DNA of 63,995 bases, the filler included, from Acidimicrobiia bacterium (GTDB lineage Bacteria; Actinomycetota; Acidimicrobiia; Spongiisociales; JAENVV01): the NCBI GenBank assembly GCA_041577335.1. It is 11 parts of 11 records of this genome, joined end to end, with 100 filler letters (N's around TTAATTAATTAA, not from the genome) between each part and the next. Parts side by side here need not be neighbours in the genome. Positions count along the whole stretch, not along the records: positions 45,374 to 50,859 come from JBFGJH010000107.1; positions 50,960 to 56,435 come from JBFGJH010000108.1; 9 more parts are not named here. One strand, given 5' to 3'. The notes under the pieces are model-generated. The model worked only from the letters and a program-made list of their open reading frames with translations. It had not been told where the DNA came from and made no database searches. Both the position numbers and the translations under genes were made by a program. Shown here piece by piece: positions 45,274 to 56,535 of the stretch (the stretch's first letter is position 1; each line of letters starts with the position of its first letter).

Positions 45274-45408
45274 NNNNNNNNNNNNNNNNNNNNNNNNNNN
45301 NNNNNNNNNNNNNNNNNTTAATTAATTAANNNNNNNNNNNNNNNNNNNNNNNNNNNNNNNNNNNNNNNNNNNNGGCTTGCCCCGGCGGCCGACCGTTGTG
45401 GGTTCGGC

Positions 45409-48400
45409 ATGACCGTCACGACGAGACACGCCACCGACCCATTCCAGGCCTATGTGCCGCACCTTCTCGTCGAATGGCACCTCGACCATCCGGACGAGAC
45501 ACACCGCGAGATCGTGGGAACGATGGTGTTCGCCGATATCTCGGGCTTCACGGCACTGTCCGAGATGTTGTCACAGTACGGCAACCTGGGAGCCGAAGAG
45601 GTCACGGACGTCATCGGCGACTGCTTTCAGGCCCTGCTGGATGTCGTCTACCCCCTGGGGGGCCGGCTCCTCAAATTCGGTGGGGACGCACTGCTGCTGC
45701 TGTTCACCGGCCCGGGCCACGAGCGCCGGGCGGTGAATGCAGCCGTGGGCATGTTGCGAGAGATGAAGAAGGTGGGCAACGTGCGCACCACCGGCGGAAG
45801 AATCACGCTGCGAATGTCGATCGGCATCCACTCCGGGACTTTCGACTTCTATCTCGTTGGCAACTCCCACCGCGAGTTGATCATCACCGGTTCGGCCGCC
45901 ACCACCACCGCCGAGATGGAGACCGCCGCCGACGCCGGCGAGATCGCCGCATCACCGGCGATCATCGCTGCACTGCCGGACCAGGTGATCGGAGCCCGGA
46001 AGGGCCCGGGTGTCCTGATCTCCGGCCCGCTGGAGGACGTGGGCGAAATCGAGGTCGACGTGCGGGAGCCCGACGTCAGCCTGGAAGAGTTTGTTCCGCT
46101 GGCCATTCGCGAACCGATCCTGGCGGACGCCATCGAGGCCGAGCATCGGCTGGTGACCGTGGCCTTCATCCAGTTCTTCGAGGTCAATGCCATGCGGGAG
46201 CGGGAGGGGATGGCGGGCGTGGCCCGGGCGCTGCAGGAACTGGTAGCGGATGTACAGCACGCGGCGGACTCGCGCAACGTGACTTTCGTCTCCACCGACA
46301 TCTACGACGACGGCGGCAAGATCATCCTGGCCGCCGGCGCCCCCACTTCCACCGGCACCGACGAAGAGCGAATGCTCGACGCGTTGAGAGAGATCGTCAC
46401 GAAGGATCGAGCGCTCCCGATTCGCGTCGGTGTCAATCGCGGGCACGTGTTCGCCGGTGACGTGGGTCCCGAGTATCGACACACCTACACCGTGATGGGC
46501 GACGGGGTCAACCTGGCGGCCCGGCTGATGTCCGCCGCCCAGCCGGGCGAGATCCGCTCCACCCCCGCCGTACTGAACCACTCTCGCACCATGTATGAAA
46601 TGACCCCGCTCGAGCCCTTCATGGTCAAGGGCAAGAGCGAGCCCATCCAGGCGTGCTCAGTAGGCGAGGAAATCGGTTCCCGCATCGACGTGGACGATCA
46701 CGACCTGCCATTCATGGGTCGCGACCAGGAGATGGTCGAACTGCGCAAGGGCCTGGAGGACGTCAAAGCCGGTATCGGATCATTGATCACCGTGAGCGGC
46801 GACCGCGGCATCGGCAAAACCCGTCTGGTGGAGGAGGCGATCCGCGATTTCGAGCCGCGGCTCGAGGTCCGGGCTGAGCCGTATGGCCTCACCAATCCGT
46901 ATCGGGCGCTTCGTGACCCGGTGCGGGGTCTGCTGAGGATCGAACGCGGCGACAACGCTTCGATGGCCAAGCAGCTGAAGACGGCCATCGAAAAGCTCGA
47001 TGCGTCGCTGCTTCCGCTCATGCCGCTCATCGCCGACGTCGTCCAGGTCGAGATTCCTTCCACTCCGGAAGTCGACGACATCGAGCCTCGATTCCGGCCG
47101 GATCGGGCGGCCGACATACTCATTGCTCTCATCGCCGCCTGCGTCCCGGGGCCGCTCGCAATCCTGGTCGACGACGCCCACTGGGTGGATGAGGCCTCGA
47201 CCAAACTTCTCTATCGGCTGTGTCAGGAGACCGCCACCCGCCCGTGGGTCATCTTCACCACTCGACGCGAAGCCGACTCGGGGTTCGATCCGCCGGGCGA
47301 GACGATCCGGCTGGCGCCGCTCGACGAGCCGACCTCCCGCGCGATCGCCATCGAGGTGACCGACGATGCACCGCTGCGGCCCCACGAGCTCGACGCCATC
47401 GTCGACCGCACCGGCGGCAACCCCCTGTATCTGGCCGAGGTGTTGGCAGCCGTCCGCACCGCCGGCAGCTTCAGCGACCTCCCTGATTCGCTCGACTCGC
47501 TGGTCACCACCCAGATCGACGCACTGCCCCCCGGTTCTCGGCAACTGCTGCGGTACGCGAGCGTGCTGGGGCGCAGCTTCCGCCCCGAACTGCTGCGCCG
47601 CATCCTGAACGGCGAGGCCGACGATGTGAACCAGCTCATTCACAAGGATCTCTCTGCCTTTTTGGAGCTGACCGATGGTCGCGTTCGGTTCCGCCACAGC
47701 ATCCATCGCGACGCGGCCTACGAGGGTCTTTCGTTCCGAAAGCGGCGGGAGCTCCACCTCGCCGCCGGCCATGCCATCCAGGAGCTGGCCCCGGATCCCG
47801 ACGCGGTGGCCGACGCCCTCGGCATGCACTTCTACCTCGGACACGATTTCGAGATGGCATGGAAATACTCCCGCATCGCCGGAGACGACGCCCGGGACGC
47901 CTACGGAAACGTGGAAGCGGCCACCAACTACGAACGGGCCCTCGAGGCCGGCAAGAGGCTGAAGAACCTCGACAAGGCCGAGGTGGCCAAGGTGTGGATC
48001 GCGTTGGGCGATGTGCGCGAGCAAATCGCAAAGTTTCCAGAAGCGATTGACGCGTTCCGGCGGGCCGGCAAGCTCCTCTCAAATGATCCGGTGGCCCAGG
48101 CCGATGTGATCGCCAGGCGAGCTTTGGCGAAAATGCGTGACATGGCCTACACCAGCGCACTGGCCGACACGACTCGCGGGCTGAACCTCCTCGAGCCAGT
48201 CGGCACCATGGATGCGGGACGGGCGCGCGCCCGCCTCATGACGACGCGTGCCCGGATTCTGATAAACCAGCGGAGACTCCGCCAGGCCCTCGACGCAGCC
48301 CAGGAGGCCATCGACGTCGCCAAGGCGGCGAATGAGGAGGAGTCGCTTGTCCTAGCTTACGACGTCTACAACTCGGCCCATCTGGACATGGGTCAACCGG

Positions 48401-49200
48401 AGAAGGCCATCTACTCGGAAAAGGCGCTCGCAATCGCAGAAAAAATCGGCCTTCTGCATGCCGCCTCGATGATCACGAACAACCTGGGAGCGAAAGCGTA
48501 TTTCGCCGGTGAATGGGACCGCGCGCTGGAGATGTATCGCAAAAGCATGAACGCTTTGGAACGGGCCGGCAACACAATGATGGCAGCCTCGGTGGGATCC
48601 AACATCGGCGAGTTGCTGGTGAGTCAGCGTAAATTCGACGAGGCGGAACCGGTGCTTCTCGATTCAGTTCGAGTTCTGCGGGCGTCCGATGCCAAATACG
48701 AAGCGTTATTTGCAGAAGCCCAATTGGGACGCCTGTACGCCGAACGGGGAGATCACGAAACAGCATTCCCGATTCTCGAGGAAGCCAGGAGCCAGCTGCT
48801 AGAACAAGGACAAGCGGTCGACAGCCTCGAGGCGGCGATATATCTGGCAGCTGCGCACATCAAGGCGGGTGACCCGAACAGAGCACTCGACCTGCTCAAG
48901 GACGCCGAGGCTGCCGCAGGGAGCGAAGTGGTCGTCATGGCTGCAATGCTTGGCCGGGTTCGAGGAGCGGCCCTCGCTGTCCTGGGGCACAGGGAAGCCG
49001 CGCTCGCCGAACTCAACGAGGCGCTTGATCTGGCCTCCCAACACGGCCTCATCTACGAATGGGCGCTGGGTCTCCAGGCCTGCGTCGACCTCAGCCCGGA
49101 TGCTCGAAGTGAGGGAGTTCGCTCCATGCAAGCCGACGCCGAAGAACTGTTCGAGCGCCTCGGCGTGGAGCCGGCCACGTACTCTGTCACACCGGACTAG
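45409..49200 (+). CDS. Tandem class III nucleotidyl cyclase - STAND ATPase - TPR protein, version A
   Basis: FADISGFT and KFGGDA (C1); YTVMGDGVNLAARL (C2); Walker A GDRGIGKT; Walker B LVDDAHW; GGNPLY; C-terminal TPR-like helices. Confidence 0.93.
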   Translation: MTVTTRHATDPFQAYVPHLLVEWHLDHPDETHREIVGTMVFADISGFTALSEMLSQYGNLGAEEVTDVIGDCFQALLDVVYPLGGRLLKFGGDALLLLFTGPGHERRAVNAAVGMLREMKKVGNVRTTGGRITLRMSIGIHSGTFDFYLVGNSHRELIITGSAATTTAEMETAADAGEIAASPAIIAALPDQVIGARKGPGVLISGPLEDVGEIEVDVREPDVSLEEFVPLAIREPILADAIEAEHRLVTVAFIQFFEVNAMREREGMAGVARALQELVADVQHAADSRNVTFVSTDIYDDGGKIILAAGAPTSTGTDEERMLDALREIVTKDRALPIRVGVNRGHVFAGDVGPEYRHTYTVMGDGVNLAARLMSAAQPGEIRSTPAVLNHSRTMYEMTPLEPFMVKGKSEPIQACSVGEEIGSRIDVDDHDLPFMGRDQEMVELRKGLEDVKAGIGSLITVSGDRGIGKTRLVEEAIRDFEPRLEVRAEPYGLTNPYRALRDPVRGLLRIERGDNASMAKQLKTAIEKLDASLLPLMPLIADVVQVEIPSTPEVDDIEPRFRPDRAADILIALIAACVPGPLAILVDDAHWVDEASTKLLYRLCQETATRPWVIFTTRREADSGFDPPGETIRLAPLDEPTSRAIAIEVTDDAPLRPHELDAIVDRTGGNPLYLAEVLAAVRTAGSFSDLPDSLDSLVTTQIDALPPGSRQLLRYASVLGRSFRPELLRRILNGEADDVNQLIHKDLSAFLELTDGRVRFRHSIHRDAAYEGLSFRKRRELHLAAGHAIQELAPDPDAVADALGMHFYLGHDFEMAWKYSRIAGDDARDAYGNVEAATNYERALEAGKRLKNLDKAEVAKVWIALGDVREQIAKFPEAIDAFRRAGKLLSNDPVAQADVIARRALAKMRDMAYTSALADTTRGLNLLEPVGTMDAGRARARLMTTRARILINQRRLRQALDAAQEAIDVAKAANEEESLVLAYDVYNSAHLDMGQPEKAIYSEKALAIAEKIGLLHAASMITNNLGAKAYFAGEWDRALEMYRKSMNALERAGNTMMAASVGSNIGELLVSQRKFDEAEPVLLDSVRVLRASDAKYEALFAEAQLGRLYAERGDHETAFPILEEARSQLLEQGQAVDSLEAAIYLAAAHIKAGDPNRALDLLKDAEAAAGSEVVVMAAMLGRVRGAALAVLGHREAALAELNEALDLASQHGLIYEWALGLQACVDLSPDARSEGVRSMQADAEELFERLGVEPATYSVTPD

Positions 49201-50546
49201 TGAAGTTTGTGAGGATCTCCGAATCCGTAGGTGTCGTAAGTCCTGACGACCTCCCCCGCCCTGGCTACCGATTCCGTATGAACCAGGCACCAGGTCTCGT
49301 CCCCGGTTTCCGGGGGCTCGTTGCCATTAGGTAGCTGCGGATAGAACTCGATTTTCGTTGTATCCGGATTGTCTCCCACGAACGCGAGGATCTTCGCCCG
49401 CTGCATCTCTCCCGCGGGGTTGATGGCACCTGTCCATTGAGCTGGCACATCGTCGTTCTCGTTCTCACCTGGGGCCGCCATGTTCTCGACCACCACACAC
49501 CACTTCATTACCACGAAGTTGTCGGGTGCGCCCTCGTCGTCGTATTTCAGCGTGCGGTGCTGTAAAGCCGGCGGAGTCGTATCGGTGCCAACAAACTGCC
49601 CCAGGTAATACGCGTCGTCCTGCCCCGTCGTTGGAGCGGGAAAGAAGGTCACTACGACACCCTGCTGAGTTTCGTTGACATCGGCGTTGTACGCCTTGGG
49701 AGCGCAGTCGGAGCCATCCCCGTTTGCGAGACGCCAGTACTGGCCATTGACGGCGCTCGCCGCCTGACCGATCAGGTCAGTCGTGTCGCCGCAATCGAGA
49801 AGTCCGACAATCTCGAACCAGGTGTCGAAAGCAGTATCACCCAACACGTCAATGATCGAGACTGCCCCGGTCGATGTGATACGCACCCCGTTGAACAGAA
49901 CGTCATCGATGCTATCGACTTTGGTCCTGTCGTAATGGACGGCGGCGGCATCGGCCAAGCCCGAATCGGGACCGCAATCGGATCCGTTGCACTCCAGCAC
50001 GATTTGGGGATCCGGAGTGTCCTGGGCGACCACCACGCCGTCCAACAAGCGCTCGACCTTCATGTCGCCGTTGAACTTGAACTCGGCGGCAATCTGGAAT
50101 GAGCCGAAGAACTTCGTTTCCAGGGCGGGGGCAGCACTGGCGTTCGTGTTGTCGATCCGAATCGTCAACGTTTCTCCCACGTTGACGCGACGGCACGGCT
50201 CACCGTTTCCTTCTCCCTGGGATTTGACACCGAGTGCCTGGTTGCGCAATCCCACGATGGCGTTGCCGGGTCCGGTCGCACCCAGCGTCACTACATCGGG
50301 CGACCCGCTCTCCGTCGCCTTGCACTGTTGCGCGATCGTCAACAATTCTGTAAACGCCACGTTGTTCTGGTCCTTGTAGACGAACTTGTCGCCCTCCGTG
50401 CCATCGAGGACGAGGTCGAGGACGTTCTTCGTTGGTTTCTTGTGATTTGGCGTGTCGTTGGCGCCGGCGCTTCCGGCGACCACCAATGAACCCAGCAGAG
50501 CCATCATTGCAAAAAGAGTCGTCAATCGTTTGGCACGAACCTGCAT
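49197..50546 (-). CDS. Secreted Cys-rich protein of unknown function, version A (449 aa)
   Basis: AGGAGG RBS; signal peptide ending AGA; 8 Cys; ends GFGDPHKLH. Confidence 0.85.
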   Translation of the reverse strand: MQVRAKRLTTLFAMMALLGSLVVAGSAGANDTPNHKKPTKNVLDLVLDGTEGDKFVYKDQNNVAFTELLTIAQQCKATESGSPDVVTLGATGPGNAIVGLRNQALGVKSQGEGNGEPCRRVNVGETLTIRIDNTNASAAPALETKFFGSFQIAAEFKFNGDMKVERLLDGVVVAQDTPDPQIVLECNGSDCGPDSGLADAAAVHYDRTKVDSIDDVLFNGVRITSTGAVSIIDVLGDTAFDTWFEIVGLLDCGDTTDLIGQAASAVNGQYWRLANGDGSDCAPKAYNADVNETQQGVVVTFFPAPTTGQDDAYYLGQFVGTDTTPPALQHRTLKYDDEGAPDNFVVMKWCVVVENMAAPGENENDDVPAQWTGAINPAGEMQRAKILAFVGDNPDTTKIEFYPQLPNGNEPPETGDETWCLVHTESVARAGEVVRTYDTYGFGDPHKLH

Positions 50547-50994
50547 GTTGCCTCCTGATGAATGCCCAGCGATCGGACGCCGGCGGTATTGCGTTCGGTT
50601 TGCGCCCGGCTTGCCCCCGGGCGTATTTCCACCCTACAGATGCAGGAGTCGCTTGAGACATCGAAGGTGTCGGTCTCACCGATCCCCGTGCCTGAATGTG
50701 GTCTTGGAGCAGCCGCCTTCGGGTTTTGCGCCGGTAAAAATCCGCAATGGCCCCAGCGTGAGGGGAGATCTCGGTGACGAGACCGTCGACTGCCTAGAGC
50801 GCCGAGATGTCGGACGTGCCGGTCACGTCGATGGTTCGGTGCTCGCCGGCCGGTGGCCCNNNNNNNNNNNNNNNNNNNNNNNNNNNNNNNNNNNNNNNNN
50901 NNNTTAATTAATTAANNNNNNNNNNNNNNNNNNNNNNNNNNNNNNNNNNNNNNNNNNNNGGCTTGCCCCGGCGGCCGACCGTTGTGGGTTCGGC

Positions 50995-53900
50995 ATGACC
51001 GTCACGACGAGACACGCCACCGACCCATTCCAGGCCTATGTGCCGCACCTTCTCGTCGAATGGCACCTCGACCATCCGGACGAGACACACCGCGAGATCG
51101 ACGGGACCATGGTGTTTGCCGACATCTCGGGCTTCACCGCATTGTCGGAGATGTTGTCCCAATACGGCAACCTGGGAGCCGAAGAAGTCACAGACGTCAT
51201 CGGCGATTGCTTCCAAGCGCTGTTGGACGTCGTCTACCCGCTGGGAGGACGGCTCCTCAAGTTCGGGGGGGACGCGCTGCTGCTGTTGTTCACCGGCCCC
51301 GGCCACGAGCGTCGCGCGGTGAATGCAGCAGTGGGCATGCTGCGGGAGATGAAGAGGGTGGGCAACGTCCGAACCACCGGCGGAAGAATCACCTTACGAA
51401 TGTCGATCGGCATCCACTCCGGCTCGTTCGACTTCTATCTGGTCGGCGAGTCCCATCGCGAGCTGATCATCACCGGGTCGGCTGCCACCACCACCGCCGA
51501 AATGGAGACCGCCGCCGACGCCGGCGAGATCGCAGCATCTCCGGCGACCATCGAAGCCCTGCCGAAGGACGTAGTCGGTTCCCGCAAGGGTCCCGGCTTC
51601 TTGATCACCGGCCCGGTCGAGGACGTGGGCGAGATCGAGATCGACGTGCGGGAACCCGACGTCAGCCTCGAATCCTTCGTGCCCGTCGCCATCCGCGAAC
51701 CGATCCTGGCGGACGCCATCGAGGCCGAGCACCGGCTGGTGACCGTGGCCTTCATCCAGTTCTTCGAGGTCAATGCCATGCGGGAGCGGGAGGGAATGGC
51801 GGGCGTGGCCCGGGCCCTGCAGGAACTGGTAGAGGATGTACAGGACGCGGTGGATTCGCGCAACCTGACTTTCGTCTCCACCGACATCTACGACGACGGC
51901 GGCAAGATCATCCTGGCCGCCGGCGCCCCCACCTCCACCGGCACCGACGAAGAGCGAATGCTCGACGCGTTGAGAGAGATCGTCACGAAAGATCGAGCGC
52001 TCCCGATTCGCGTCGGTGTCAATCGCGGGCACGTATTCGCCGGTGACGTGGGTCCCGATTACCGCCACACCTACACCGTCATGGGCGACGGGGTCAACCT
52101 GGCGGCCCGGCTGATGTCTGCCGCCCAGCCGGGAGAGATCCGCTCCACTCCCGCCGTGCTGAATCATTCTCGCACGATGTATGACATGACCCCGCTCGAG
52201 CCCTTCATGGTCAAAGGCAAGAGCGAACCAATCCAGGCGTGCTCGGTGGGCGAGGAAATCGGTACCCGTATCGACGTGGACGATCACGACCTGCCGTTCA
52301 AGGGCAGGGATGCGGAACTGACCCAGCTGAAGGAAATCTTGGAAGAGATCAGAGCAGGGGTCGGAGCGGTGGTGACGGTTAGCGGCGACCGTGGAATCGG
52401 CAAAACCCGTCTTGTGGAGGAGGCGATCCGAGATTTTGAACCAAGGCTTGAAGTCCGGGCTGAGCCCTATGGGGTCACCAATCCGTACCGGGCGCTACGC
52501 GACCCGATGCGGGCCTTATTGAGGATCGAACGCGGCGACCATGCGTCAATGGCCGAAATGCTGAGAACGGCCATCAAAGAACTCGATGCATCGCTGCTTC
52601 CGTTGCTGCCCCTCGTCGCCGACATCGTTCAAGTCGAAGTTCCGTCCACCGCCGAGGTCGACGACATCGAGCCACGATTTCGACCGGATCGAGCGGCGGA
52701 CATCCTCATCGCCCTCATCGCAGCCTGCGTCCCCGGGCCGCTCGCAATCCTCGTCGACGATGCCCACTGGGTGGATGAGGCCTCGACCAAACTTCTCTAT
52801 CGGCTGTGCCAGGAGACCGCCACTCGCCCGTGGGTCATCTTCACCACTCGGCGCGGAGCCGACTCCGGATTCGCACCGCCGGGCGCGACGATCCGGCTGG
52901 CGCCGCTGGACGAGCCGACCTCCCGGGCGATCGCCATCGACGTGACCGACGACGCACCGCTGCGGCCCCACGAACTCGACGCCATCGTCGACCGCACCGG
53001 CGGCAATCCCCTGTACCTGGCCGAGGTGTTGGCCGCCGTACGCACCGCCGGCAGCTTCAGCGACCTCCCCGATTCGCTCGACGCGCTGGTCACCACCCAG
53101 ATCGACGCGCTGCCCCCCGGTTCTCGCCAACTACTGCGGTACGCCAGCGTGCTCGGGCGCAGCTTCCGCCCCGAACTGCTGCGGCGCATCCTGAACGGAG
53201 ACGCAGATGATGTGAACCGGCTCATCCACAAGGATCTCTCTGCTTTCCTGGAGCTGACCGATGGTCGTGTTCGGTTCCGCCACAGCATCCATCGTGACGC
53301 CGCATACGAAGGTCTTTCGTTCCGTAAGCGGCGCGAATTGCACCTTGCCGCCGGCCGGGCCATCCACGAGTTGGCCCCCGATCCCGACGCTGTGGCCGAC
53401 GCCCTAGGCATGCACTTCTTCCTGGGACACGATTTCGAATTGGCGTGGAAGTACTCCCGAATTGCCGGCGACGACGCACGTGACGCCTACGGAAACGTGG
53501 AGGCGGCCACCAACTACGAACGTGCCCTGGAGGCCGGCAAGAGGCTGAAGAACCTCGACAAGGCCGACGTGGCCAAGGTGTGGATCGCGCTGGGCGATGT
53601 TCGCGAGCAAATCGCGAAGTTTCCAGACGCTATTGACGCATTCCGGCGGGCGGGCAAGCTCCTCTCTAGCGATCCGGTGGCCCAGGCCGATGTGATCGCC
53701 AAGCGAGCTTTGGCGAAAATGCGTGACATGGCCTACACCAGCGCACTGGCCGACACGACTCGCGGGCTGAACCTCCTCGAGCCAGTCGGCACCATGGATG
53801 CGGGACGGGCGCGCGCCCGCCTCATGACGACTCGTGCGCGGATTCTCATGAACCAGCGGAGACTCCGCCAGGCCCTCGACGCCGCCCAGGAGGCCATCGG

Positions 53901-54786
53901 TATGGCCAAGGCGGCGAATGAGGAAGAGTCCCTTCTTGGCGCCTACGATGTTCACGACGGCGCTCAATTAGACATGGGTCAACCGGAGAAGGCCATCTAC
54001 TCCGAGAAAGCGCTCGCAATCGCAGAAAGAATCGGACTTCTGCCTGCCGCCTCGATGATCACGAACAACCTCGGAGCGAAAGCGTATTTCGCCGGCGAGT
54101 GGGACCGAGCCCTCGACATGTATGGCAAGAGCATGGATTCTTTCGAGCGGGCCGGCAACACAACGATGGCAGCCATGGCGGGATCCAACATCGGCGAGTT
54201 GCTGGTGAGCCAGCGCAAATTCGATGAAGCCGAGCCGATCCTTCTCGACTCAATCCGAGTTCTGCGGGCATCCGATGCCAAAGACCCAGCGTTGTTCGCA
54301 GAAACCCAATTGGGACGCCTGTACGCCGAACGGGGAGATCACGAAAAAGCAGTCCCGATTCTCGAGGTAGCCAGGAGCCAACTGCTCGAGGAGGGACAAG
54401 CGGTTAACAGCCTCGAGGCGGCGATATATCTGGCAGCTGCGCACATCAAGGCGGGTGATCCGAACAGAGCACTCGACCTGCTCGAGGACGCCGAGGCTGC
54501 GGCAGGAAGCGAAGTGGTTGTCATGGCAGCAATGCTTGGCCGGGTTCGAGGAGCTGCCCTCGCTGTCCTGGGACACAAGGAAGCCGCGCTCGCCGAACTC
54601 AACGAGGCGCTGGAGCTGGCCTCCCAACAGGGCCTCATCTACGAACGGGCGCTGAGTCTCCAGGCCTGCGTCGACCTCAGCCCGGATGTGCGCAGTGAGG
54701 AAGCTCGCTCCATGCAGGCCAACGCCGAAGCACTCTTCGAGCGCCTCGGCGTGGAGCCGGCCACCTACTCGGGCCCACCGAACTAG
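50995..54786 (+). CDS. Tandem class III nucleotidyl cyclase - STAND ATPase - TPR protein, version B
   Basis: Same length and motifs as version A; about 110 substitutions by manual count (~91% identity). Confidence 0.93.
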   Translation: MTVTTRHATDPFQAYVPHLLVEWHLDHPDETHREIDGTMVFADISGFTALSEMLSQYGNLGAEEVTDVIGDCFQALLDVVYPLGGRLLKFGGDALLLLFTGPGHERRAVNAAVGMLREMKRVGNVRTTGGRITLRMSIGIHSGSFDFYLVGESHRELIITGSAATTTAEMETAADAGEIAASPATIEALPKDVVGSRKGPGFLITGPVEDVGEIEIDVREPDVSLESFVPVAIREPILADAIEAEHRLVTVAFIQFFEVNAMREREGMAGVARALQELVEDVQDAVDSRNLTFVSTDIYDDGGKIILAAGAPTSTGTDEERMLDALREIVTKDRALPIRVGVNRGHVFAGDVGPDYRHTYTVMGDGVNLAARLMSAAQPGEIRSTPAVLNHSRTMYDMTPLEPFMVKGKSEPIQACSVGEEIGTRIDVDDHDLPFKGRDAELTQLKEILEEIRAGVGAVVTVSGDRGIGKTRLVEEAIRDFEPRLEVRAEPYGVTNPYRALRDPMRALLRIERGDHASMAEMLRTAIKELDASLLPLLPLVADIVQVEVPSTAEVDDIEPRFRPDRAADILIALIAACVPGPLAILVDDAHWVDEASTKLLYRLCQETATRPWVIFTTRRGADSGFAPPGATIRLAPLDEPTSRAIAIDVTDDAPLRPHELDAIVDRTGGNPLYLAEVLAAVRTAGSFSDLPDSLDALVTTQIDALPPGSRQLLRYASVLGRSFRPELLRRILNGDADDVNRLIHKDLSAFLELTDGRVRFRHSIHRDAAYEGLSFRKRRELHLAAGRAIHELAPDPDAVADALGMHFFLGHDFELAWKYSRIAGDDARDAYGNVEAATNYERALEAGKRLKNLDKADVAKVWIALGDVREQIAKFPDAIDAFRRAGKLLSSDPVAQADVIAKRALAKMRDMAYTSALADTTRGLNLLEPVGTMDAGRARARLMTTRARILMNQRRLRQALDAAQEAIGMAKAANEEESLLGAYDVHDGAQLDMGQPEKAIYSEKALAIAERIGLLPAASMITNNLGAKAYFAGEWDRALDMYGKSMDSFERAGNTTMAAMAGSNIGELLVSQRKFDEAEPILLDSIRVLRASDAKDPALFAETQLGRLYAERGDHEKAVPILEVARSQLLEEGQAVNSLEAAIYLAAAHIKAGDPNRALDLLEDAEAAAGSEVVVMAAMLGRVRGAALAVLGHKEAALAELNEALELASQQGLIYERALSLQACVDLSPDVRSEEARSMQANAEALFERLGVEPATYSGPPN

Positions 54787-56120
54787 TAGATCTTGTACGG
54801 ATCTCCGAATCCGTAGGTGTCGAACGTCCTGACGACCTCTCCCGCCCTGGCAACCGATTCCGAGCGAACCAGGCACCAGGTCTCCTCCCCGGCTAGCGGG
54901 GGCTCGTTGCCATCAGGTAGCTGCGGATAGAACTCAATCTTGTCAGTAGTAGACGGATCGTCTCCCACGGACTCGAGGATCTTCTTCCGCTGATTCTCTC
55001 CCGCGAGGTTGATGGCACCTGTCCATTGAGCTGGCACCGTTTCGTTGTCCACACCGGTGTTCTCGACCACCACACACCACTCCATCTCGTTGAAGGGGCC
55101 AGGCGGGGGGACGTCGTCGTACTGCAACGTCCGTTGCTGCGTAGCCGGCTGCGTCGCTTCTGTGCCAACAAACTGGCCTAGGAAGTACGCTTTCTCCTGT
55201 CCCGGAGCCGGAGCGGGGAAGAACGTTACGACACCCTCCTGAGTTTCATTGACATCCGCGTTGTACGGCTTGGGAGCGCAGTCGGAGCCATCCCCATTTG
55301 CGAGACGCCAGTACTGGCCATTGACGGCGCTCGCCGTCTGACTGATCAGGTCAGTCGTGTCGCCGCAATCGAGAAGTCCGACAATCTCAAACCAGGTGTC
55401 GAGAGTGGGATCACCCAACACGTCGATGACCGAGACCGCCCCCGTCGATGTTAGCCGCACCCCGTTGAACAACACGTCGTCGATGCTGTCGGCTTTGGTC
55501 CTGTCGTAATGGACGGCGGCCGCATCGGCCAGACCTGAATCGGGGCCGCAGTCAGATCCTGTGCACTGCAGCACGATTTGGGGATTCGGATTGTCTTGGG
55601 CGACCACCACGCCGTCTAGCAAACGCTCGACCTTCATGTCGCCGTTGAACTTGAATTCGGCGGCGATCTGGAATGAGCCGAAGAACTTCGTTTCCAGGGT
55701 GGGGGCGGCATTGGCGTTCGTGTTGTCGATCCGGATCGTCAACGTTTCTCCCACATTGACGCGACGGCACGGCTCACCGTTGCCTTCTCCCTGGGATTTG
55801 ACACCGAGTGCATGGTTGCGCAATCCCACGATGGCGTTGCCGGGTCCGGTCGCACCCAGCGTGACCACATCGGGCGACCCGCTCTCCGTGGCCTTGCACT
55901 GTTGCGCGATCGTCAACAACTCGGTAAAGGCCACGTTGTTCTGGTCCTTGTACACGAACTTGTCGCCTTCCGTGCCATCGAGGACCAGGTCGAGGACGTT
56001 TTTCGCGGGTTTCTGATAGCTGACGGTGTCATTGGCGCCGGCGCTTCCGGCGACCACCAATGAACCCAGCAGAGCCATCATTGCAAAAAGAGTCGTCATT
56101 CGTTTGGCACGAACCTGCAT
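54783..56120 (-). CDS. Secreted Cys-rich protein of unknown function, version B (445 aa)
   Basis: AGGAGG RBS; same signal peptide and Cys pattern as version A; ends GFGDPYKIY. Confidence 0.85.
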   Translation of the reverse strand: MQVRAKRMTTLFAMMALLGSLVVAGSAGANDTVSYQKPAKNVLDLVLDGTEGDKFVYKDQNNVAFTELLTIAQQCKATESGSPDVVTLGATGPGNAIVGLRNHALGVKSQGEGNGEPCRRVNVGETLTIRIDNTNANAAPTLETKFFGSFQIAAEFKFNGDMKVERLLDGVVVAQDNPNPQIVLQCTGSDCGPDSGLADAAAVHYDRTKADSIDDVLFNGVRLTSTGAVSVIDVLGDPTLDTWFEIVGLLDCGDTTDLISQTASAVNGQYWRLANGDGSDCAPKPYNADVNETQEGVVTFFPAPAPGQEKAYFLGQFVGTEATQPATQQRTLQYDDVPPPGPFNEMEWCVVVENTGVDNETVPAQWTGAINLAGENQRKKILESVGDDPSTTDKIEFYPQLPDGNEPPLAGEETWCLVRSESVARAGEVVRTFDTYGFGDPYKIY

Positions 56121-56535
56121 GTTGCCTCCTGATGAATGCCAAGCGATCGGACGCCGGCGGTATTGCGTTCGGTTGTTGCGCCCGGCTTGCCCCCGGACGT
56201 ATTTCCACCCTACAGATGCAGGAGTCGCTTGAGACATCGAAGGTGTCGGTCTCACCGATCCCCGTGCCTGAATGTGGTCTTGGAGCAGCCGCCGTCGGGT
56301 TTTGCGCCGGTAAAAATCCGCAATGGCCCCAGCGTGAGGGGAGATCTCGGTGACGAGACCGTCGACTGCCTAGAGCGCCGAGATGTCGGACGTGCCGGTC
56401 ACGTCGATGGTTCGGTGCTCGCCGGCCGGTGGCCCNNNNNNNNNNNNNNNNNNNNNNNNNNNNNNNNNNNNNNNNNNNNTTAATTAATTAANNNNNNNNN
56501 NNNNNNNNNNNNNNNNNNNNNNNNNNNNNNNNNNN

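Follow-up and report, generated by a model that had tools for sequence, protein, structure and literature searches.

The window, the whole stretch of 63,995 nucleotides analysed here, consists of contigs of one metagenome-assembled genome of an Acidimicrobiia bacterium (labelled G000), with N spacers between them. Two of these contigs, C107 and C108, each encode a large protein, A, with two class III cyclase domains, a STAND NTPase and a tetratricopeptide repeat (TPR) region, and a smaller convergent protein, S, with the features of a secreted protein; the two versions are referred to as allele 1 and allele 2 (Table 1). Our results demonstrate that A-S is a real and widespread convergent two-gene module in uncultured Actinomycetota, and that the distal TPRs of A and the C-terminal domain (C-domain) of S are exchanged together between genomes as one block.

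Table 1 Features of the A-S module in the window (positions along the whole window; sAC, human soluble adenylyl cyclase; aa, amino acids)
Feature	Position	Strand	Remarks
Contig C107, allele 1	45374..50859	.	Assembly-bubble arm; first and last 141 bases same as C108
Contig C108, allele 2	50960..56435	.	Opposite bubble arm; 89.5% identity to C107
Gene A, allele 1	45409..49200	+	sAC-like dual cyclase-STAND-TPR, 1263 aa; 4-base overlap between the stops of A and S
Gene A, allele 2	50995..54786	+	1263 aa
Two class III cyclase domains of A	45514..46641	+	C1: metal Asp43/Asp93; C2: Thr361/Asn368/Arg372; residue roles in part presumed
STAND NTPase module of A	46708..47808	+	Walker A aa 464-471, Walker B aa 583-589, both intact
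TPR sensor region of A	47809..49158	+	Allele differences concentrated in aa 961-1110
Gene S, allele 1	49197..50546	-	Secreted (predicted), 449 aa; no Pfam, NCBIfam, PADLOC or PDB-sequence match
Gene S, allele 2	54783..56120	-	445 aa; ATG start at 56120
Signal-peptide-like S N-terminus	50460..50546	-	Basic, hydrophobic, A-x-A end; judged from sequence
S N-domain, aa 38-248	49803..50435	-	Jelly-roll of carbohydrate-binding-module type (model); interchangeable cargo
S C-domain, aa 249-449	49200..49802	-	Unannotated, beta-rich; invariant are 4 Cys and Asp444, which is followed by five residues
Exchanged junction block of allele 2	53824..55358	.	A ~aa 944 to S ~aa 255; 95-97% to distant genome G420

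By Pfam, A contains two Guanylate_cyc stretches, AAA_16 and TPRs including TPR_MalT, and its two versions are 91.3% identical, which agrees with a preliminary description of this DNA as encoding two class III cyclase domains, a STAND ATPase and TPRs at about 91% identity. The best match of A among PDB sequences is human sAC (E 9e-23), covering both cyclase domains. D43, D93, N368 and R372 of A align to D47, D99, N412 and R416 of sAC and are conserved in relatives, and T361, also kept in relatives, aligns to T405, the class IIIb Thr that replaces the substrate-binding Asp; the roles ascribed to the numbered sAC residues, Arg176 included, are presumed. The Walker A and B motifs are conserved (26 rows), and the order of effector, NTPase and repeats is that of STAND NTPases. 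A belongs to an established protein class, the sAC-like STAND cyclases, and its STAND family is presumably the SWACOS clade named by Leipe et al. in 2004.

The base pocket is remodelled. Unlike sAC, A has Ser295 at the site of Lys334 (Ser, Ala or Gly, never Lys, in 74 rows), Asp297 and Lys304 at the positions of sAC 336 and 343 (both present in 74/74 rows), and Ala168 in place of Arg176, where Arg is absent, a site presumed to matter for the bicarbonate/CO2 response of sAC. PMC2613629 describes both the substrate Lys and the Thr of class IIIb. Lys304, nine residues beyond Ser295, may stand in for the substrate Lys; with no Lys at the Lys334 site and Lys304 conserved, the product may be cyclic AMP (cAMP) made through a relocated Lys, or another cyclic nucleotide monophosphate (cNMP). 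A has no predicted membrane segment. Two further cyclase-STAND-TPR genes are encoded in the same genome (G000:C2:118830-122771 and G000:C58:7855-11640), one a dual cyclase whose substrate site apparently retains a basic residue, the other a BTAD-cyclase fusion; no S-type partner was found beside either by the searches run.

S has an N-terminal hydrophobic stretch, and no other membrane segment was seen. The two alleles have 8 Cys in common; their identity is 93.8% over aa 41-250, 90% over 251-300 and, with indels, 68.7% over 301-449. The preliminary picture of a convergent secreted partner with 8 conserved Cys and a divergent C-terminal third thus holds, with secretion judged from the sequence. 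Its nearly invariant N-terminal two-thirds, however, are a property of the two alleles that breaks down across relatives: those with a C-domain 93-94% identical to that of allele 2 carry an N-domain only 35% identical. Relatives numbered 22 by word search and 78 as representatives at 50% identity. In front of the C-domain, which stays last, they carry a lectin-like domain, vWA, DUF11, Big_9/cadherin, Ig, SdrD_B or choice-of-anchor L, with total lengths of 320-900 aa. Since the cargo varies while the C-domain stays, the constant part of S is the C-domain, the reverse of the impression given by the two alleles.

A structure model of S built from 73 sequences (pLDDT 83.5) gave as top fold match of the N-domain 9q5u, an Aeromonas putative carbohydrate-binding module plus split domain (Z 11.1, root-mean-square deviation 3.5, 144 aligned), followed by CBM29 and CBM8 (Z about 8). 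In this model the N-domain is a jelly-roll of carbohydrate-binding-module type; a shared fold shows no function, and sugar binding is putative. Such modules act as adhesin tips according to the available text of PMC12077191. No fold match was obtained for the C-domain in whole-S searches, where the N-domain filled all lists. Pfam gave 0 relevant matches for 73 members, NCBIfam, PADLOC and PDB sequences gave none for S, and an Atlas search with S returned no usable match (best 0.83). The C-domain appears to be an unannotated terminal domain of Actinomycetota surface proteins, and S to be adhesin-like.

An invariant Asp lies 4-7 residues from the end of S in 38/38 aligned pairs. Among 96 profile-supported proteins, 82 have a 4-7-residue tail after this Asp and 3 have a tail of 3 or 9; the remaining 11, mostly cut or frameshifted, have none by pattern. 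In allele 1 the Asp belongs to a four-residue Asp-Pro motif, the GDPH of VWD, and Gly follows it in 19/38 relatives. Asp-Pro self-cleavage is described, in the available texts, for VWD domains (PMC10880436) and for RTX modules (SPM, PMC7078468). No homology of S to VWD or SPM was found, and the C-domain, as part of whole S, had no Pfam match. In one locus (L156:1393-2355), S is preceded in tandem by a second S-like gene, which shares its C-domain but not its N-terminus.

To assess the linkage of the two genes, we fetched 68 loci around S, which include near-duplicates. A convergent A was found in 40/40 loci where S is complete and followed by 500 bp or more, and in 41/47 loci when 300 bp sufficed; by eye, the six exceptions have a TPR-like end. 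In a class sample of 401 genomes, S was found in 49 and a dual cyclase in 98, tallies that include G000 and the unpublished G398. From this sample 48 S places were taken, with G398 among them but without G000 and most N-domain-only matches. A convergent A is present at 39 of these places, 7 sit at the end of a contig and 2 are clear orphans. In a phylum sample, also of 401 genomes, 5/6 C-domain matches outside the class have a full-length convergent A. The preliminary description had named mostly unlinked S homologues as the outcome that would speak against a receptor-ligand pair; the homologues found are mostly linked. The stop codons of A and S overlap in 31/46 pairs, and the genes flanking the module differ between lineages. 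Three records titled 'Acidobacteriota' (L045, L049, L066) were not counted as cross-phylum spread, as their AtpA is 78% identical to that of the window's genome, like Acidimicrobiia controls, and they are thus probably mislabelled.

The linkage was also viewed from A. Of 83 top A places, 37 adjoin S (G398 counted); 37 of the other 46 were fetched and 35 could be assessed. In sixteen of these the convergent neighbour is a secreted protein with a similar end (supported by profile in 3, borderline in 4 and on motif grounds only in 9), in 2 the partner ends in a different domain, 1 looks frameshifted and 16 have no partner, so that an S-type or similarly ending secreted partner is present at 53/72 assessable top A loci. 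An iterative profile search did not firmly draw in most of the extra partners (profile-profile probability 47.5%), and a profile built from the extra partners themselves was rejected as circular support for their homology. The two partners with a different terminal domain (L110:3884-8050 and L117:3855-5054) are convergent, secreted and Ig-rich; that domain is, we presume, PxKF-like and had no library match, and the TPRs of their A proteins group with outgroup cyclases.

The block exchange is seen most directly in G420, a distant genome with 71% identity to the window's genome in the ATP synthase operon. Its A is 73% identical to that of the window in the cyclase region and 69% in the STAND core, then 87-94% from aa 691, and becomes allele-2-specific from aa 944 (40/49 and 37/45 informative sites), with 95-97% identity in the distal TPRs. 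Its S C-domain is 95% identical to allele 2 (82/95 informative sites), and identity drops to 49% in the N-domain. Each breakpoint lies inside one contig, the two contigs being parted by a gap of about 90 bases, and an independent protein, P0003, has the chimera of the S side as well. Trees of 26 A-S pairs gave a concordant result for a test group set beforehand by Gly after the Asp (the L005 clade plus L151 and L159): it forms a clade in the distal-TPR tree (support 96) and, together with L155, in the C-domain tree computed without the tail (support 96), and is rejected as a clade by the cyclase, STAND and N-domain (approximately unbiased test, p 2e-36, 9e-53 and 3e-6). L154 represents a second swap case at p about 0.02, its group having been named after the tree was seen, and the identity between L023 and L142 falls from 0.76 to 0.43 near aa 860 of A. 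The swaps begin near the STAND/TPR boundary of A, and because the two 3' ends abut, the distal TPR and the C-domain can be swapped together.

The same two regions distinguish the alleles of the window. Amino-acid differences are enriched in S 301-449 (Fisher p 3e-10) and TPR 961-1110 (3e-4), regions chosen after the alignment was seen. The ratio of nonsynonymous to synonymous substitution (dN/dS) between allele 1 and allele 2 is 0.09-0.10 in the cyclases, 0.13 in the STAND module, 0.08-0.31 in parts of the TPR region and 0.47 in the C-terminal third of S.

The preliminary description had also taken the cassette to be present twice. The two copies are whole contigs parted by an N spacer, so a tandem duplication within the window was rejected. 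C107 and C108 are exactly identical over 141 bases at each end, an overlap length also found at other contig junctions of the assembly, and thus have the shape of an assembly bubble. We compared contig-level data from 4 of 8 listed runs (3 studies) to allele 1; the runs X7 and X8, with a small share, were left out of any reading of habitat. Pieces matching allele 2 recur in 4/4 runs and all 3 studies, 39/40 variants listed against allele 1 are allele-2 letters, and many pieces differ from allele 1 at the same number of sites as allele 2 does; both versions are therefore real DNA.

Very probably the two versions are alleles of one locus, most likely in co-occurring strains. Runs X1 and X4 contain both and continue as a single path for about 970-1010 bases beyond the shared right end, run X5 has allele 2 alone at 45573-45654 (12.3 of 12.3), and some pieces are mosaic. 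This evidence consists of contigs, which can drop rare variants, so it is not proof, and one run may be the source of the genome. True paralogs within one genome, with gene-converted ends, would fit a graph of the same shape (a repeat with identical ends), the depths near 1:1 in X1 and X4, the absence of the contigs flanking C107 and C108 from the bin, and G237, which carries two S genes; against the single path, the allele-2-only run and the mosaic pieces, we consider them improbable.

In STAND switches, the sensor repeats release the NTPase and the effector is turned on. In the reading that we favour, A would act as a cytoplasmic STAND switch, in which a pseudo-heterodimeric sAC-type cyclase would make a cyclic nucleotide once the TPR sensor releases the NTPase. 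S would be a secreted surface or adhesin-like protein with variable binding cargo in front and a conserved terminal domain behind, and the TPRs of A would recognise its C-domain or short tail. They might do so on the S precursor while it is still in the cytoplasm, or on a piece of S that is cut off at the invariant Asp and brought back into the cell. The distal TPR and the C-domain, whose exchange is observed, would then serve as one swappable specificity cassette while the cyclase, NTPase and cargo stay, and cNMP would tell the cell how much of its own adhesin type is present or in what state. Given the linkage, the exchange and the domain content, we put the chances at about even that the TPRs read the C-domain or tail of the partner and gate the cyclase. 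It is tempting to go further and speculate that the terminal domain releases a 4-7-residue C-terminal peptide at the invariant Asp, which is imported and read by the TPRs as a strain-specific self-recognition code, lock and key being swapped between species as one convergent cassette and the product possibly not being cAMP; this fuller version is unlikely in our estimate. The genome contains five peptide-binding-protein genes, a common feature.

Several observations weigh against the proposed mechanism. The orphan S genes L157 and L158 have no A, and L178 likewise lacks a partner; the partnerless share of the other A loci is 16/35, and for 13/16 extra partners C-domain homology is borderline or by motif only. 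No linked membrane transducer or protease was found at A-S loci, and the cyclase lacks the canonical substrate Lys. L102 has an L113/L116-like C-domain and a TPR region that is sister to L023. The raw correlation of 0.64 between TPR and C-domain distances is due to one dense clade: once the set is thinned to 18 pairs, none of the TPR regions shows a significant correlation with distances in the C-domain or the tail (Mantel p 0.10-0.61), and the global mirror-tree and the tail-TPR correlation were both rejected as not significant. dN/dS is below 1 in every region and gives no sign of positive selection, and adjacent ends between conserved anchors could move together neutrally. The idea that the two versions are specificity types agrees with the exchanged block and with the differences concentrated there, but it has to be set against the low dN/dS and against their likely status as alleles in co-occurring strains rather than two systems of a single cell.

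Alternatively, and this seems possible if rather doubtful, S is the output of the system: A would sense another intracellular ligand, cNMP would control expression or export of the adhesin, the C-domain would be a surface anchor or sorting domain, and the block would move by adjacency only. The Mantel result and the L102 mismatch fit such a scheme, as do the secretion of S while A lacks a membrane segment, the lack of another anchor in S, the CRP-like protein encoded in the genome and the recurrence of cNMP-binding and metallo-beta-lactamase (phosphodiesterase-like) genes nearby. However, a CRP-type box or conserved palindrome was found upstream of S in 0/65 promoters, and S as output leaves unexplained why the convergent, often overlapping layout is kept across classes while the flanks change, why swaps start near the STAND/TPR boundary and why allele differences lie at both ends. 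Also improbable is a guard-type defence in which A monitors its own surface protein and blocked export or altered S (phage, stress) triggers a defence effector through cNMP: most defence STAND sensors are TPR-like in the available text of PMC13581612, allelic polymorphism fits conflict, 2 loci have a PycTM gene behind A and 1 has a cNMP-patatin gene there, but no effector is consistently linked, the PycTM loci have no S, and what PADLOC matches is limited to generic parts of the cyclase and the TPRs.

We compared the module with known systems. Like mammalian sAC (ADCY10) and the SWACOS STAND cyclases, A has complementary C1/C2 residues, the class IIIb Thr and an NTPase behind the cyclases, whereas it differs from them in having a TPR sensor tied to a secreted partner gene. 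The NTPase domain of sAC is putative in the available text of PMC6023465. RRNPP systems (Rap-Phr, PlcR-PapR) likewise place a cytoplasmic TPR receptor gene next to a Sec-type secreted gene, and their signals are usually the last 4-10 residues of the secreted protein (PMC10075063, available text). In contrast to their propeptides (10-100 aa) and receptors (250-500 aa), S is folded and 449 aa long and A is a 1263-aa STAND cyclase, so the A-S pair is not an RRNPP member by either size; it also belongs to Actinomycetota, and peptide release and import are hypothetical in it.

S resembles the ligand-binding regions of RTX adhesins (carbohydrate-binding modules, vWA, Ig extenders) in its 9q5u fold match and in the vWA, Big_9, DUF11 and SdrD_B domains of related partners; unlike those adhesins, S-type proteins are small and Sec-type, and no RTX repeats or type I signal were seen. 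Avs/NLR-like antiphage STANDs and Pycsar share with A the effector-STAND-TPR layout, the cyclase effector and, in 2 loci, a PycTM neighbour, but the conserved partner of A is secreted rather than an effector, and most loci have no defence context. With regard to Pycsar, no cNMP effector lies inside the window's contigs, whose flanks are missing, and PycTM occurs in 2/35 other A loci. The Sinorhizobium NsrA-CyaK-Clr system reportedly couples cyclase signalling with an envelope protein and with a target gene close by, and is said to use membrane-bound CHASE2 cyclases and a linked CRP-family gene; in contrast, A is a soluble STAND cyclase with no linked CRP gene and no CRP box.

No published account of the A-S pair was found in the literature searched, with subscription papers and supplements outside its range. 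The available text of two surveys of STAND diversity (PMC13581612, PMC8195603) does not mention the pair, and the lists of STAND clades and neighbourhoods in their supplements may bear on it. The cassette structure is unusual; an adjacent TPR receptor and secreted ligand, and a STAND switch, are of an already known kind. Together, A-S hints at an undescribed lock-and-key signalling pair.

To our knowledge, no input has been established for full-length sAC-like STAND cyclases, nor is it known how the C-terminal part of mammalian sAC is controlled. S is a concrete, genetically linked candidate ligand for such a cyclase, with natural cognate and non-cognate pairs. In addition, the module delimits a terminal domain without annotation that many surface proteins of Actinomycetota carry, and a cyclase subfamily whose base pocket is remodelled; joint exchange of the sensor end and the partner end offers a reason for the conserved convergent layout.

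Around the module, only tRNAs were found in a search of 11 loci for riboswitches or known RNAs near S, and a promoter and terminator scan stayed at chance level. Two genomes from a single genus have a PycTM gene (PF18967) immediately after A and in the same orientation (L108:3522-4163 and L138:3567-4223), a possible Pycsar-like offshoot without a secreted partner. Genes for metallo-beta-lactamase (phosphodiesterase-like), PAS, cNMP-binding and cNMP-patatin proteins recur near the module at positions that are not fixed (L137:3847-4716; L044:450-1669; L023:5394-7721; L037:10210-12861). In one lineage (L007, L019, L027, L034-L036, L049-L051, L061-L063), a cluster of two trypsin-like and small unknown genes lies upstream of S on the opposite strand. 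The same 10-mer occurs in opposite sense upstream of A (window 45374-45383) and upstream of S (about 50588-50597); it was not seen conserved in relatives and is likely due to chance. Elsewhere in G000, another strain bubble, a partial one of 903 bp (88.9%), is formed by C118 and C127, and C73 ends in a long low-complexity run.

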